DNA of 26,672 nt from Candidatus Doudnabacteria bacterium Gr01-1014_77 (GCA_007375915.1 VMFF01000002.1:1-26672); one strand, 5' to 3'. Numbered from the stretch's first letter, positions 4,530 to 18,676 are shown. Notes: generated by a model not told the origin, from the letters alone. Translations and numbers: made by a program.

Positions 4530-5081
4530 ATGAAATATATCACAATTGCCTTAATGGCAATAACAGTGTTGCTAACTGGAAGTATTGCTTTAGCACAAGA
4601 AATACCGGTACATGCTCAAGCACAGTCTGTTGAGAGCGCTGAATTAACAACAGAGATTCAATCTCAAAGTAGTACAACCACAACAAAGCCAAAGCAAGCA
4701 ACCAAGAAGAAAAAGACCAAGAAAAAAGCAACCAAAAAACAGACTAAGGCAAAGAATACAAATGCAAAAAAAGAAGTTAAGCCCAAGAAGACTACAAAAA
4801 AGACAAGCACGAAGAAACCGAAGAAAAGCAAAAGCATTTCAACAAATACAACATCAGATGTTGAAAGAGCTAACCTTGGGACAACCAAAGATACTTTAAA
4901 GGTCGAACAACCTGATGCTTTAGGACAGTTAATAAACAGCGGAACGATTGATTTGCAAGCACAGTCTACTGAAGATCCGGTTCCTCGAAAAACCGCTCGA
5001 AAAGGATTAGCTGTAGTTGGGATATCAGGGTTTAGTGGCTTGGGTTTGATGCTCCTACTTAAGAAATTCTTCCCACATTAA
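4530..5081 (+). CDS. Exported Lys/Thr-rich low-complexity protein with a C-terminal membrane anchor
   Basis: GAGGGGAG SD before ATG 4530; signal peptide ending ALA-Q; central KKxTKK-rich tract; C-terminal hydrophobic helix followed by KK. Confidence 0.8.
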   Translation: MKYITIALMAITVLLTGSIALAQEIPVHAQAQSVESAELTTEIQSQSSTTTTKPKQATKKKKTKKKATKKQTKAKNTNAKKEVKPKKTTKKTSTKKPKKSKSISTNTTSDVERANLGTTKDTLKVEQPDALGQLINSGTIDLQAQSTEDPVPRKTARKGLAVVGISGFSGLGLMLLLKKFFPH

Positions 5082-5163
5082 TCAAGCATTAAGCGGTTGC
5101 CAAAAGGCCTCTGCTTAAGGTATACTAGTGGGGAATTATTTTAAGAAAAGCAGTACAAAAGAA

Positions 5164-5445
5164 ATGAATAAAAATGAACTAATAGAAAGCCTTGCAGGAA
5201 AGCTTGCTCTGCCAAGATCAGAAGCAGAGAGAATGCTTAATACCTTGGTTGATGTAATTTCTGAAACTCTTAAAAAAGGTGACGAAGTAAACATTACTGG
5301 GTTTGGTCAGTTTTCCGTAAGTAACAGAGCAGCAAGAGCAGGAGTAAATCCTCAGAACCCAACAGAGAGAATTCAGATTGCTGCAACAAAAGTTCCAAAG
5401 TTCAGAGCAGGCAAGAGTTTGAAAGAAGCGGTAAAAAGCGAATAA
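5164..5445 (+). CDS. hup: DNA-binding protein HU
   Basis: MNKNELI...ITGFGQF...RAARAGVNPQ...VPKFRAGKSLKEAV. The start is placed at ATG 5164 because the track's GTG 5128 abuts a -10 box (TTGCCA-N18-TATACT, 5097-5126). Confidence 0.97.
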   Translation: MNKNELIESLAGKLALPRSEAERMLNTLVDVISETLKKGDEVNITGFGQFSVSNRAARAGVNPQNPTERIQIAATKVPKFRAGKSLKEAVKSE

Positions 5446-5456
5446 CTAGAAATATG

Positions 5457-5480
5457 TTTGGCCAGAAGTTTCTGGCCAAA
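5457..5480. repeat. Perfect 11-bp inverted repeat 6 nt upstream of tRNA-Pro
   Basis: TTTGGCCAGAA-gt-TTCTGGCCAAA. Confidence 0.9.
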
Positions 5481-5486
5481 CTTTAA

Positions 5487-5563
5487 CGGGAACTGGCTCA
5501 ATTGGCTAGAGCGCTCGCTTTGGGAGCGAGAGGTTCCGGGTTCGAGTCCCGGGTTCCCGACCA
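5487..5563 (+). tRNA. tRNA-Pro (TGG)
   Basis: Cloverleaf with acceptor CGGGAAC/GTTCCCG, anticodon arm CTCGC-ttTGGga-GCGAG, TTCGA T-loop and encoded CCA. Confidence 0.97.
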
Positions 5564-5614
5564 AAATAATTCCGGTTTCTCCGGTTTTTATTTAAGTTCA
5601 AATTAGGAGGTTTT

Positions 5615-6289
5615 GTGAGAGCACATTTAAAACAAAAGGCTTTAAAGCTACGAAAAGAAGGTTGGTCGTACAGCGTCATTAAGAGAAGAACAGGAGTGCC
5701 TAAAAGTACTCTTAGTAATTGGCTTGGCAATTTACCGTATAGACCAAACTCAGAAGTTAGAAAGAGCATGAAAGAAGGACCTTTGCGTTCTGCTGTCATG
5801 CGCAGAAAAGCAAAGATCAGGAACACAAGAGAGATTAAAACATCGGCAGCAAGAGAATTAGGTAAGCTTTCCAAAAGAGATAAATGGATGTTGGGTTTAG
5901 GTATTTATATGGGCGAGGGTTCAAAGACCCATGATAACATCCGGGTTATAAACTCAAATCCAGAAATAATTAAAAGTGCTGTTAAATGGTTTAGTGATAT
6001 TTGTGATGTTCCATTAGAAAATTTTGGTATAAGGGTACATTCGTATCCAGATATTGATGAAAAGGAATGCAGGGCATATTGGTCCAAAGTTTCTGGTATA
6101 CCTTTAAGTCAGTTTTTTAAGAGTCACATAGATACAAGGACAAACAAGTCAGTTTCGAAAAAACATAAGCTACAATATGGAACAGCGCATTTAATAATTA
6201 AGAGTTGTGGAAAAATAAAATTTGGGGTAATCTTACATAGAAGAATTATGGGCTGGATCGAAGAAGCCTATAAGCAAATGCGGGTATAG
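5615..6289 (+). CDS. HTH plus LAGLIDADG-like (homing-endonuclease-like) protein between two tRNAs
   Basis: AGGAGG SD with GTG start; N-terminal HTH (ALKLRKEGWSYSVIKRRTGVPKSTLSNWL); LGLGIYMGEGSK...RVINSNPEII resembles a single LAGLIDADG helix. The stop codon lies inside tRNA-Gly. Confidence 0.7.
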   Translation: MRAHLKQKALKLRKEGWSYSVIKRRTGVPKSTLSNWLGNLPYRPNSEVRKSMKEGPLRSAVMRRKAKIRNTREIKTSAARELGKLSKRDKWMLGLGIYMGEGSKTHDNIRVINSNPEIIKSAVKWFSDICDVPLENFGIRVHSYPDIDEKECRAYWSKVSGIPLSQFFKSHIDTRTNKSVSKKHKLQYGTAHLIIKSCGKIKFGVILHRRIMGWIEEAYKQMRV

Positions 6290-6353
6290 TTTAGTGGTCA
6301 AACGCCTCCCTTCCAAGGAGAAGTCGCGGGTTCGATTCCCACTACCCGCTCCA
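6280..6353 (+). tRNA. tRNA-Gly (TCC)
   Basis: Acceptor GCGGGTA/TACCCGC, loop ctTCCaa, TTCGA T-loop and encoded CCA; contains two C-A mismatches (see findings). Confidence 0.92.
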
Positions 6354-6543
6354 GATATCAATGAATTTAAATTGCGGAATATCCGCATTTTTTTGTCCAC
6401 AAGAATTTTTGGTTGTTCTCATTTGAAACCATGGGGCATAGTCATTGATAAGTAGATATATACTAGATCGTCATGAAGGATGGATAACTAAATTAGCTGA
6501 AAAAGTTGGTTTTACATCTAAGTCACTAAATATAGGTAAACAC

Positions 6544-6565
6544 AAAACCCCCGAAAGGGGGTTTT
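6544..6565. terminator. Symmetric intrinsic terminator
   Basis: AAAACCCCC-GAAA-GGGGGTTTT. Confidence 0.85.
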
Positions 6566-6573
6566 GTTATGGT

Positions 6574-6602
6574 TTGACAATATTACCAAAAGATTATATA
6601 AT
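6574..6602 (+). promoter_or_regulatory. Perfect consensus sigma70 promoter with no credible ORF behind it
   Basis: TTGACA-N17-TATAAT. Confidence 0.85.
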
Positions 6603-6608
6603 GCTTTC

Positions 6609-6777
6609 ATCTTAAACCTTTGTACCAGGTTTATCCACATTATGATTTGTACCATCATAACCATTTTCAAGGGCATTCTGCTGAATACCTTAGGAGTCAA
6701 AGAAATCAGGAAAGTAGAACCAACCACGCTTAAATAGGGGATTTTAAGCGACTTTGTTATACTTTCCTGGTTTTTTT
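6609..6777 (+). ncRNA. Candidate ncRNA of about 170 nt with twin UUGUACC-loop hairpins
   Basis: Consensus promoter; hairpins at 6613-6633, 6640-6660 and 6670-6691; an 11-bp helix (6706-6716/6760-6770) enclosing an 8-bp helix and followed by T7. Confidence 0.65.
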
Positions 6778-6784
6778 ATGCAGA

Positions 6785-6813
6785 TTGTGTTTGCACGCAC
6801 ATGTACGTATAAA
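6785..6813 (+). promoter_or_regulatory. Putative promoter of the surface-protein gene
   Basis: TTGTGT-N17-TATAAA, which implies a 5' UTR of about 250 nt. Confidence 0.45.
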
Positions 6814-7073
6814 AGGAACCGGGCGGTTATTTGAATCAATATATAGAGTGTGTAACAACGCTCTAAGATAGGCGTCAAATAATACGCAACTAGCACTGGA
6901 GTGTCTAGTGTTCTTTATTAATGAAGATTGGTCGATCTCTAGGCGAAAGGCCTTGTAATAGGCTTGCCAGAAGCTAGTTGAAACAGAAAATATATTAATA
7001 ACACTTTTTTTAGACAAAGATTGATTGTCGCATATGAACAATTAATCATACGTTTAAAAAAACGGAGTAAAAC

Positions 7074-11271: not shown

Positions 11272-11865
11272 GTGGATATTGAGATGAAAAAAGAGTTCGA
11301 GAAGATAAGCTCAGAGTTTAACAAAATGCATCTAGAATTCAGGAAAATAGATGCAAGATTTGATCAGGTGGATAAACGCTTTGAGCTAGTTGATGAGAGG
11401 TTCGACCAGATGGATCAACGATTCAACGAAGTAGACAAACGTTTTGAACTTGTAGATCAAAGGTTTGACGAAGTAGACAAACGTTTTGCAAAAGTTGATG
11501 CGAGATTTGAGCTGATAGATAAGCGATTCGAGCAAATAGACCAACGGTTTGAGCAGGTGGATAAACGCTTTGAAGAAGTAGATAAGCGATTCGAGCAAAT
11601 AGACCAAAGGTTTGATCAGGTTCATAAACGTCTTGATGGGATAGATCAACGCTTTGAGCAGGTAGATCAAAGGTTTGATCAGGTTGATAATGATATATCC
11701 TTAGTATTGATGACTGTGAGTAAAACATACGAAGAAATGGAAACAGAAATCAAAACAATCAATGCTCGTATGGTAACCAAAGATTACCTCGATCGTCGCT
11801 TAGAGAGGTTTGCTAGCGTAAATCATCTCATGTTAAGAGAACAAGGCCCTGATTACAAGGTTTAA
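11272..11865 (+). CDS. Heptad-repeat coiled-coil protein
   Basis: AGGAG SD with GTG start; 16 tandem RF(E/D)x(V/I)D(K/Q) heptads; upstream TTGACT-N18-TACAAT at 11211-11240. Confidence 0.85.
   Translation: MDIEMKKEFEKISSEFNKMHLEFRKIDARFDQVDKRFELVDERFDQMDQRFNEVDKRFELVDQRFDEVDKRFAKVDARFELIDKRFEQIDQRFEQVDKRFEEVDKRFEQIDQRFDQVHKRLDGIDQRFEQVDQRFDQVDNDISLVLMTVSKTYEEMETEIKTINARMVTKDYLDRRLERFASVNHLMLREQGPDYKV
11356..11691 (+). repeat. Degenerate 21-bp coding tandem repeat, 16 units
   Basis: Heptad codons; an exact 27-bp copy GATAAGCGATTCGAGCAAATAGACCAA occurs at 11518 and 11581, 63 bp apart. Confidence 0.9.
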
Positions 11866-18025: not shown

Positions 18026-18676
18026 ATGAAAAAAGAAATCGGTGTTCTTTTAGGAGTTGGATTATTAATTGTAATTTTGGTTGGTTTAGGAATGTTTCTT
18101 GCAAAATCTAGTGGAGAAAGTGTAACAGCAAGCGTGAATGTTTTGCTTGATGGCGCAGTATATCAAACTAACTATCAGGGAGAAGGAAAGACAGCTAAAG
18201 TTAATGTTGTTGAGTTTGGAGACTATCAATGCCCAGCTTGTTCTGTAGCTGAACCAAAGGTTCAGGAACTACTAGCTAAGTACAAGGACAACAAAGAGTT
18301 TAATTTTGTTTTCAGAAGTTTTCCTTTACCACAGCATCCAAATGCAATGATTGCTTCAGAAGCAGCTTTGGCAGCAGGGGAACAAGGTAAGTATTTTGAA
18401 ATGCACAGCAAGCTATATACAAATCAAGCAGAGTGGGAAAACAGTCCTGATCCGCTCGATATATATACAAAGTATGCAACAGAGCTTGGTTTGAATGTTA
18501 ATGTTTTTAGAGAAGCAGTTCGCGGTGAAAAGTTTAAGGATCAGATTCTGAAAGACAGAAGTATTGCTGAATCAATAGGAGTAAATGCAACACCAACATT
18601 CTTTGTTAATGACAAGCCATTTGTCGGTATTCCAGGAGATGACATGTTCCAGGCAGTGGAAGAGGGATTGAAATAG
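18026..18676 (+). CDS. dsbA: Membrane-anchored DsbA/BdbD-like thiol-disulfide oxidoreductase
   Basis: N-terminal TM helix, EFGDYQCPAC, FRSFPL, and GVNATPTFFVN with the cis-Pro loop. Confidence 0.92.
   Translation: MKKEIGVLLGVGLLIVILVGLGMFLAKSSGESVTASVNVLLDGAVYQTNYQGEGKTAKVNVVEFGDYQCPACSVAEPKVQELLAKYKDNKEFNFVFRSFPLPQHPNAMIASEAALAAGEQGKYFEMHSKLYTNQAEWENSPDPLDIYTKYATELGLNVNVFREAVRGEKFKDQILKDRSIAESIGVNATPTFFVNDKPFVGIPGDDMFQAVEEGLK

Follow-up and report, generated by a model that had tools for sequence, protein, structure and literature searches.

The locus between tRNA-Pro and tRNA-Gly

The DNA analyzed here (the window) is a stretch of 26,672 nucleotides from Candidatus Doudnabacteria bacterium Gr01-1014_77 (GCA_007375915.1 VMFF01000002.1:1-26672). 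Our subject is an open reading frame (ORF) of 224 aa located between the genes for tRNA-Pro(UGG) and tRNA-Gly(UCC). Its product carries an N-terminal helix-turn-helix (HTH) domain and a predicted LAGLIDADG-type domain and is a putative homing endonuclease. The locus contains the following features.

5487-5563, plus strand: tRNA-Pro(UGG), intact (ARAGORN; Rfam 66.4 bits); upstream neighbour and left homology flank
5605-5610, plus strand: Shine-Dalgarno sequence AGGAGG, read from the sequence, 4 nt 5' of the GTG start
5615-6289, plus strand: HTH-LAGLIDADG ORF of 224 aa with a GTG start, putative free-standing homing endonuclease gene
5615-5740, plus strand: N-terminal HTH domain, residues 1-42 (Pfam HTH_23; structural matches)
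5867-6286, plus strand: LAGLIDADG-type domain, residues 85-224 (I-DmoI profile match; VIA-align)
5885-5923, plus strand: LAGLIDADG-like motif WMLGLGIYMGEGS (LGLGIYMGEGS), with the E101 codon GAG at 5915-5917
5569-6310, plus strand: segment absent from the empty allele of the same genus (spacer, ORF, and about the first 31 nt of tRNA-Gly)
6280-6353, plus strand: tRNA-Gly(UCC), intact (ARAGORN; Rfam 62.6 bits)
6373-6394, plus strand: terminator-like hairpin TGCGGAATATCCGCA (hairpin 6373-6387) followed by T7, the first of its kind 3' of tRNA-Gly

An earlier reading of the locus, made from the sequence alone and referred to below as the sequence-only reading, had described the order tRNA-Pro, a 51-nt spacer with AGGAGG, a 224-aa ORF, and tRNA-Gly. 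ARAGORN, Rfam, and an ORF scan reproduced this order exactly, and the ORF at 5615-6289 is the sole long one between the two tRNA genes. Its last codons, ATG CGG GTA TAG, are nt 1-10 of tRNA-Gly, and the TAG stop (6287-6289) corresponds to U8-A9-G10 of the tRNA; the statement that the stop codon lies within tRNA-Gly and that the ORF covers its first 10 nt was confirmed from the sequence. A whole-genome ARAGORN scan showed that tRNA-Gly(UCC) is single-copy in this genome.

The Rfam search detected neither an intron nor any other RNA family between tRNA-Pro and tRNA-Gly. Both tRNAs are whole and the ORF stands alone, inside neither an intron nor an intein, as had been read from the sequence. A consensus scan found no terminator-like or promoter-like site between tRNA-Pro, the ORF, and tRNA-Gly, which agrees with the earlier remark that no terminator separates the three genes. 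The hairpin at 6373-6394 is predicted to close the tRNA-Pro/ORF/tRNA-Gly unit, and it is kept in the empty-site relative (genome G413) described below. A further hairpin with an 11-bp stem (5456-5481) lies directly 5' of tRNA-Pro and 3' of an HU-like gene (5128-5445); it resembles a terminator only when read on the minus strand. Between this hairpin and tRNA-Pro, the scan found nothing promoter-like for the unit.

Domains and predicted structure of the ORF product

The protein is modelled with confidence by AlphaFold (AF2; predicted local distance difference test score, pLDDT, 86.8): three helices form the HTH (residues 1-42), a long helix follows (46-82), and residues 85-224 make up an alpha/beta domain. 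Pfam HTH_23 was matched over residues 5-37 with an E value of 2.6e-5 and a score of 24.3 bits against a cut-off of 24.6, and NCBIfam returned a weak IS3 HTH match only. In a VIA-align search of 48,161 chains, residues 1-42 were matched to the HTHs of resolvase, Tc3, and TrpR with Z of about 5.

The C-terminal domain was analyzed with a profile of 35 relatives, which was compared with PDB sequences. The sole nuclease matched was I-DmoI, at its second LAGLIDADG motif (E 0.0025). The alignment places GlylGeGskt...NsdpeiiklaikW of the profile on GLYVAEGDKT...NKNKALLEIVSRW of I-DmoI, with E101 opposite I-DmoI residue 117, which we take to be the catalytic acid of its second motif. An acid occupies this position in all 35 aligned relatives (E, with D in three), and G100, G102, and K104 are invariant. 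The alignment agrees with the earlier proposal that the E of MGEG is the catalytic acid. The VIA-align search with residues 85-224 gave Z of 6.8 for the endonuclease domain of the TliVMA intein, 6.1 for WhiA, 6.0 for I-DmoI (20% identity), 5.2 for I-Vdi141I, 4.9 for PI-PkoII, 4.7 for I-Tsp061I, and 4.3 for I-CeuI. With regard to the alpha-beta-beta-alpha-beta-beta-alpha fold, these are matches to seven LAGLIDADG entries at Z 4.3-6.8, a range in which unrelated folds score alike. Assignment to the LAGLIDADG superfamily is suggested by the motif alignment, combined with the fact that a single fold family recurs among the matches.

Single-motif LAGLIDADG enzymes dimerize via their motif helices. 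The two-copy model of residues 84-224 had a score of 0.63, compared with 0.00 for the best control; among proteins solved as one-chain pairs 20 of 30 attained such a score, and among those solved as single chains 1 of 23 did. The contacts of the homodimer model agree by at least 95% between runs, its pLDDT is at least 82, and its symmetric interface is formed by residues 88-101, which is the motif helix. A homodimer held together by this helix is therefore predicted, although the score may reflect likeness to solved dimers. The view of the protein as an HTH joined to a single LAGLIDADG motif, put forward in the sequence-only reading, draws support from the HTH_23 match, the I-DmoI motif match, the fold matches, and the predicted homodimer. 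Within the genus, the ratio of nonsynonymous to synonymous substitution rates (dN/dS) is 0.13, which indicates that the protein is under purifying selection.

The protein resembles I-DmoI, I-CreI, and I-CeuI in a motif helix that ends in an acid, in a domain fold that may be similar, and in the predicted symmetric dimer of motif helices. Those enzymes are encoded in introns, whereas the window gene is free-standing and its product has an extra N-terminal HTH, a long linker helix, and no match to a Pfam LAGLIDADG model. The resemblance to WhiA lies in the predicted LAGLIDADG fold combined with an HTH and in the structural match mentioned above. However, in WhiA two degenerate LAGLIDADG domains are followed by a C-terminal HTH, while the window protein has one domain, an N-terminal HTH, a retained acid, and a patchy distribution. 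WhiA is broadly conserved.

Linkage to tRNA genes, empty sites, and tRNA replacement

Homologues of about 223 aa numbered more than 150 and came nearly all from metagenome-assembled genomes of Patescibacteria, where they are annotated as 'helix-turn-helix domain-containing protein' or 'hypothetical'. An exhaustive search (E up to 0.001) yielded 2,963 clusters at 50% identity. For the type linked to tRNA-Gly(UCC), we used a sample of 80 species-representative genomes with relatives 42-84% identical to the window protein; 78 loci could be assessed, and the contigs of the other two end at this place. In all 78, tRNA-Gly(UCC) lies on the same strand directly 3' of the ORF and is called uninterrupted. 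This adjacency is far beyond chance. The distances from the stop codon to the tRNA were distributed as follows.

Gap of -98 nt (read-through): 1 locus
Gap of -15 nt: 8 loci
Gap of -10 nt: 13 loci
Gap of -1 nt: 3 loci
Gap of 0 to 12 nt: 34 loci
Gap of 13 to 35 nt: 18 loci
Gap of 69 nt: 1 locus

The ORF stop falls inside tRNA-Gly in 25 of the 78 loci, and the conserved feature is the abutment itself, mostly with gaps of -15 to +35 nt, rather than the overlap of the stop. The sequence-only reading had suggested that cleavage of the tRNA precursor by ribonuclease P (RNase P) removes the stop codon and couples expression of the gene to tRNA maturation. The geometry of the window fits such coupling, but, since the overlap is confined to 25 of the loci, coupling is not a rule of the family. 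The two-tRNA context fared likewise: the link to tRNA-Gly is universal, but tRNA-Pro(UGG) is found at most 400 nt upstream in just 23 of the 80 loci, which leaves tRNA-Gly(UCC) as the one conserved partner.

The region 5' of the tRNA was also inspected for promoters. A -10-like box situated 4-14 nt 5' of the tRNA was present in 19 of 80 occupied loci (9.1 +/- 2.8 in shuffles) and, at equal frequency, in 8 of 39 empty loci. It was present in just 2 of 26 overlapping loci, and loci with a spacer often have one. Relatives with a gap of 17-35 nt between stop and tRNA (L027, L029, L033, L041, L050, L059, L066, L082) often have a TATAAT-like box, sometimes TGTATAAT, 4-20 nt 5' of the tRNA. The box in the spacer suggests that the tRNA may have its own promoter at those loci.

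More distant paralogues showed the same arrangement with other tRNAs. Forty copies were fetched from 24 genomes, and 37 of the 39 that could be assessed are followed directly by a tRNA on the same strand, the gaps being -23 to +40. The tRNAs belong to at least 17 species, among them Gly-GCC, Ile-UAU, Ile-GAU, Met, Val-GAC, Val-UAC, Gln, Trp, Tyr, Arg-UCU, Ala-GGC, Phe, Thr, Asn, Lys, Leu, and others. Since U8-A9-G10 reads TAG, an overlap of -10 appears again at many different tRNAs. The survey of homologues for tRNA adjacency that had been proposed along with the sequence-only reading thus gave a positive answer both at tRNA-Gly(UCC) and at other tRNAs. It is probable that the window gene belongs to a large, undescribed superfamily of Patescibacteria, each branch of which lies directly 5' of one particular tRNA gene, the window's branch being that at tRNA-Gly(UCC).

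Several of the tRNAs linked to paralogues are split by group I introns, confirmed with Rfam in three cases (L162, L164, L173). The sole distant paralogue in the window's own genome (contig C11, minus strand, ~2034-1441) is situated between two split tRNAs (~2405-2110 and ~1412-1145). A group I intron (RF00028, 57 bits), the only one detectable with Rfam in the genome, splits the upstream one, a tRNA-Tyr(GUA). The downstream one starts 28 nt past the ORF stop and was called by ARAGORN as His-gtg with a 192-nt intron; this anticodon assignment is doubtful, and the tRNA could be the missing Thr-GGU. Intron maturases occur among LAGLIDADG proteins, and paralogues that abut intron-split tRNAs, as in the window's own genome, would suit a helper acting on RNA, either a maturase-like or a pre-tRNA-binding protein that aids processing of the adjacent tRNA or splicing of its group I intron. 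We consider this highly unlikely for the window gene, as tRNA-Gly(UCC) of its subfamily is uninterrupted in all 78 loci, most of the tRNAs linked to paralogues are without an intron, and gene-less relatives have the same kind of tRNA.

Two other ORFs of the window with tRNA neighbours (11272-11865 and 18026-18676) were tried as family members and rejected as unrelated to the endonuclease family. The first (197 aa) consists nearly entirely of an 11-residue repeat (VDxRFxQxDxRF...) and ends 65 nt before tRNA-Arg(UCG) and tRNA-Lys(CUU).

The distribution of the family was determined in 401 Patescibacteria genomes, in which a match with E up to 1e-5 was counted as a member. Members were present in 94 genomes (23%), at 0-7 copies each, and the Gly(UCC) type in about 12 (~3%). 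Patchy presence with empty Pro-Gly sites, as anticipated in the sequence-only reading, was found within the window's own genus (g1), where G043 and G251 carry the gene and G413 is without it. The empty site of G413 consists of tRNA-Pro, a 13-nt spacer, and tRNA-Gly(UCC), with synteny on both sides. In a BLASTN comparison of the window with this locus (L146), homology stops at 5568, past tRNA-Pro, and restarts at 6311 inside tRNA-Gly, from where it runs through the shared terminator. On this alignment, tRNA-Pro lies outside the variable segment, and the segment 5569-6310 would represent the mobile or co-converted tract. The two tRNA-Gly genes differ at about 22 positions, concentrated at 9-46. 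The tRNA-Gly of G413 is, except for one T-loop base, that of G404 and G421, which belong to two other genera of the family examined.

Two further genera gave comparable pairs. In genus g2, G173 has the gene and a quite different tRNA-Gly type, and eight congeners without the gene, whose Pro-Gly spacers measure 25 to 673 nt, share a resident tRNA type. The tRNA-Pro of G173 is identical to that of the aligned congeners G092 and G015, and no recognizable remnant of the family was seen in the 673-nt spacer of G015. In genus g16, the occupied G345 has a foreign tRNA-Gly type, and G436 has a resident-type tRNA with conserved downstream synteny and no C-terminus of the family within 140 nt 5' of tRNA-Gly. 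The body of tRNA-Gly is thus very different in the occupied alleles of all three pairs. The window tRNA-Gly has identities of 0.87, 0.86, and 0.85 to tRNAs of its own endonuclease clade (L047, L007, and L046, respectively) and a mean identity of about 0.70 to gene-less tRNAs of its own order. Since there is one tRNA-Gly(UCC) per genome, the replacement tRNA must have come from outside. The replacement looks like homing with co-conversion of flanking markers.

Traces of gene loss were also detected. On the minus strand of G431 (L132), the approximately 140 nt immediately 5' of a resident-type tRNA-Gly(UCC) (1487-1561) hold a remnant comprising the last 46 codons, which abuts the tRNA and is 70% identical to the window protein. 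Some other family matches contain internal stops or are fragmentary. The remnant and the broken copies fit the cycle of invasion and decay of selfish endonuclease genes.

A rival possibility is that the tRNA and the ORF form a cassette moved by another vehicle, such as a phage, an integrative element, or a transposon, in which the ORF would code for an accessory DNA-binding protein. The tRNA body does travel with the ORF, and the HTH resembles those of resolvases and transposases. On the other hand, synteny with the empty allele resumes at both sides, only about 0.75 kb differs, no integrase, repeats, or other mobile genes are present, and tblastn found no homologue in 50,697 phage records. 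We regard this explanation as barely credible, and a phage origin was rejected on the basis of the same tblastn result and of a PHROGs search that gave weak HTH matches only.

Some side observations were made at the occupied locus. The tRNA-Gly of the window and that of G043 have C:A mismatches at stem pairs 27:43 and 50:64 (manual numbering), and the tRNA-Gly of G251 has a G on the 3' side of a T-stem pair. Such stem mismatches may mark a recombination junction within the tRNA. Contigs of four groundwater runs over 4800-7000 contained no joint skipping the ORF; they included a related occupied strain with a 6.3-kb contig bridging 4806-6422. Just past the tRNA-Gly terminator there is a variable spot (6424-6568), at which G413 has 1.3 kb with ORFs of 223 aa and 166 aa, the latter with SGVHSDISGIHEDL-type repeats. 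The related groundwater-run strain has 191 different letters between 6422 and 6571.

Proposed mode of spread and relation to known systems

Taken together, these data lead us to favour the reading that the ORF is probably a homing endonuclease gene of the LAGLIDADG type that is free-standing, has a single motif, and codes in addition for an N-terminal HTH, living in the 5' leader of a tRNA in a manner analogous to T4 SegB. The protein would dimerize via its LAGLIDADG helix, and the dimer would cut a gene-less tRNA-Gly(UCC) allele at or close to the 5' portion of the tRNA gene. The break would then be repaired from the occupied allele, which would bring in the ORF along with a stretch, variable in length, of the tRNA gene next to it. 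We infer that the ORF is transcribed together with the tRNA and that RNase P frees the mature tRNA, so that the host would keep its only tRNA-Gly(UCC); the 5' leader would be a harmless site because RNase P releases the mature tRNA. The window ORF borrows U8-A9-G10 of the tRNA as its stop, and the ORFs of 24 other loci likewise end on stops supplied by conserved nucleotides of the tRNA. At overlapping loci, RNase P cleavage would leave an mRNA without a stop codon, which may limit expression and would be no requirement for the family.

Several results have to be set against this interpretation. With regard to the protein, VIA-align Z of 6-7 is within the range attainable by chance. Foldseek with the full-length model against PDB gave no LAGLIDADG entry, only weak OmpA-like and IspF-like rows, and the Pfam LAGLIDADG models gave no match, HTH families being the only ones found (E up to 1). 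As there is no Pfam LAGLIDADG match, the family lies outside the existing curated models. The structure checks proposed with the sequence-only reading therefore gave a divided answer, with LAGLIDADG matches of middling Z for the AlphaFold model in VIA-align and none in Foldseek. With regard to spread, the protein tree contains lineage clusters (rows labelled Staskawicz-, Moran-, and Saccharimonadales-), and an approximately unbiased (AU) test did not reject a monophyletic grouping of the same-order copies (p 0.116). Inheritance may be vertical to a large extent, and given this p value the tree is no formal proof of horizontal transfer. It is the allele comparisons, and not the protein tree, that show transfer.

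The remaining points concern the target. The tRNA-Gly of G444, in which the gene is present, is identical to that of the gene-less G434, and therefore changes in the tRNA body are not the general way in which occupied alleles escape cutting. A likelier basis for their protection is the altered sequence 5' of the tRNA. The junction varies from -15 to +35 nt, in contrast to the fixed insertion point of intron homing, and the sequence upstream of empty tRNA-Gly genes is not conserved, which bears on any 20-bp target site that would span the junction. No tRNA position absolutely separates occupied (n=84) from empty (n=39) tRNA-Gly genes, and no target site is deducible from this comparison. A9 is enriched in occupied tRNA-Gly because it forms the TAG stop. 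A T12:A23 flip occurs in occupied alleles only, the two samples being from different taxonomic ranges.

The lineage-coherent clusters and the non-rejected monophyly would also suit a domesticated LAGLIDADG/HTH DNA-binding protein, in principle WhiA-like, which regulates or marks its own tRNA operon and has no present nuclease or mobility function. The N-terminal HTH, the strong purifying selection, and the presence of WhiA among the structural matches point in the same direction. WhiA, however, has lost the acid at the catalytic position, which is kept in all of the 35 relatives examined here. Moreover, a gene found in about 3% of the sampled genomes (23% for the whole family) is one that genomes of the same genus manage without, and a truncated remnant of it exists. 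Private regulators of single tRNA genes, scattered over genomes with up to seven different copies each, are also hard to envisage. Of the two roles offered in the sequence-only reading, we thus consider that of a tRNA-operon regulator unlikely. The other role, a free-standing mobile gene tied to tRNA, is supported by the patchy distribution, the empty sites within genera, the co-replaced tRNA, and the decayed remnant.

By analogy, T4 SegB appears to be the closest mechanistic counterpart of the endonuclease proposed here. SegB is a free-standing GIY-YIG endonuclease encoded in a phage tRNA gene cluster, which cuts tRNA gene DNA at a 27-bp site containing the T-psi-C stem-loop motif and is inherited with the surrounding tRNA genes, the tRNA markers of the recipient being lost (PMC2330249). 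Both genes are free-standing among tRNA genes, and the logic of inheritance is the same as that of tRNA co-replacement in the window family. The differences are that SegB is a phage GIY-YIG enzyme for which cleavage was demonstrated, whereas the window protein is a putative nuclease with a predicted LAGLIDADG fold and an HTH, encoded in Patescibacteria chromosomes. The window family also abuts the 5' end of one tRNA, with one branch of the superfamily per tRNA species.

Intronless homing and collaborative homing, in which a free-standing endonuclease acts with a group I intron that lacks an ORF, are established (PMC3984707). Some paralogues resemble the latter in adjoining tRNAs split by ORF-less group I introns, and an intron so placed can shield the site that the endonuclease beside it targets; the tRNA-Gly(UCC) of the window, in contrast, has no intron. 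In the candidate phyla radiation (CPR), LAGLIDADG endonucleases in rRNA-gene insertions have been characterized, in a work that does not mention tRNA (PMC11270868), and group I introns in CPR tRNAs have been mentioned in passing (PMC8172020). Host phylum and enzyme superfamily of the rRNA insertions are the same as for the window gene, and so is the way in which conserved structural-RNA genes are put to use. The rRNA insertions are, however, intervening sequences inside rRNA genes, whereas the window gene lies outside the mature RNA, in the 5' leader. A full-text search of the literature found no description of a tRNA-linked LAGLIDADG family. What is new is probably the family and its niche, as the kind of element, a free-standing homing endonuclease, is already known.

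A broader proposal is more speculative, and we hold it with less than even confidence. In addition to introns and inteins, the 5' leader of tRNA precursors might be a third place where homing endonuclease genes reside without harm, and from which RNase P would remove the gene as splicing would. The borrowed U8-A9-G10 stop would give a short-lived mRNA without a stop codon. The superfamily would have radiated by retargeting, one branch per tRNA species, dragging tRNA alleles between lineages and sometimes pairing with ORF-less group I introns.

If the reading as a homing endonuclease is true, a very large unannotated family, with about 3,000 clusters at 50% identity, is present in about a quarter of the sampled Patescibacteria genomes. 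Its practical use would be the proper annotation of ORFs now listed as HTH domain-containing or hypothetical proteins. Each branch would consist of natural meganucleases directed at a tRNA locus of its own, and the family would provide a natural series in which to follow the retargeting of LAGLIDADG specificity and the union of free-standing endonucleases with group I introns. The RNase P-processed leader would be a new route by which selfish endonuclease genes become harmless to the host, and the activity of such genes would account for the horizontal replacement of tRNA genes in the reduced genomes of Patescibacteria.

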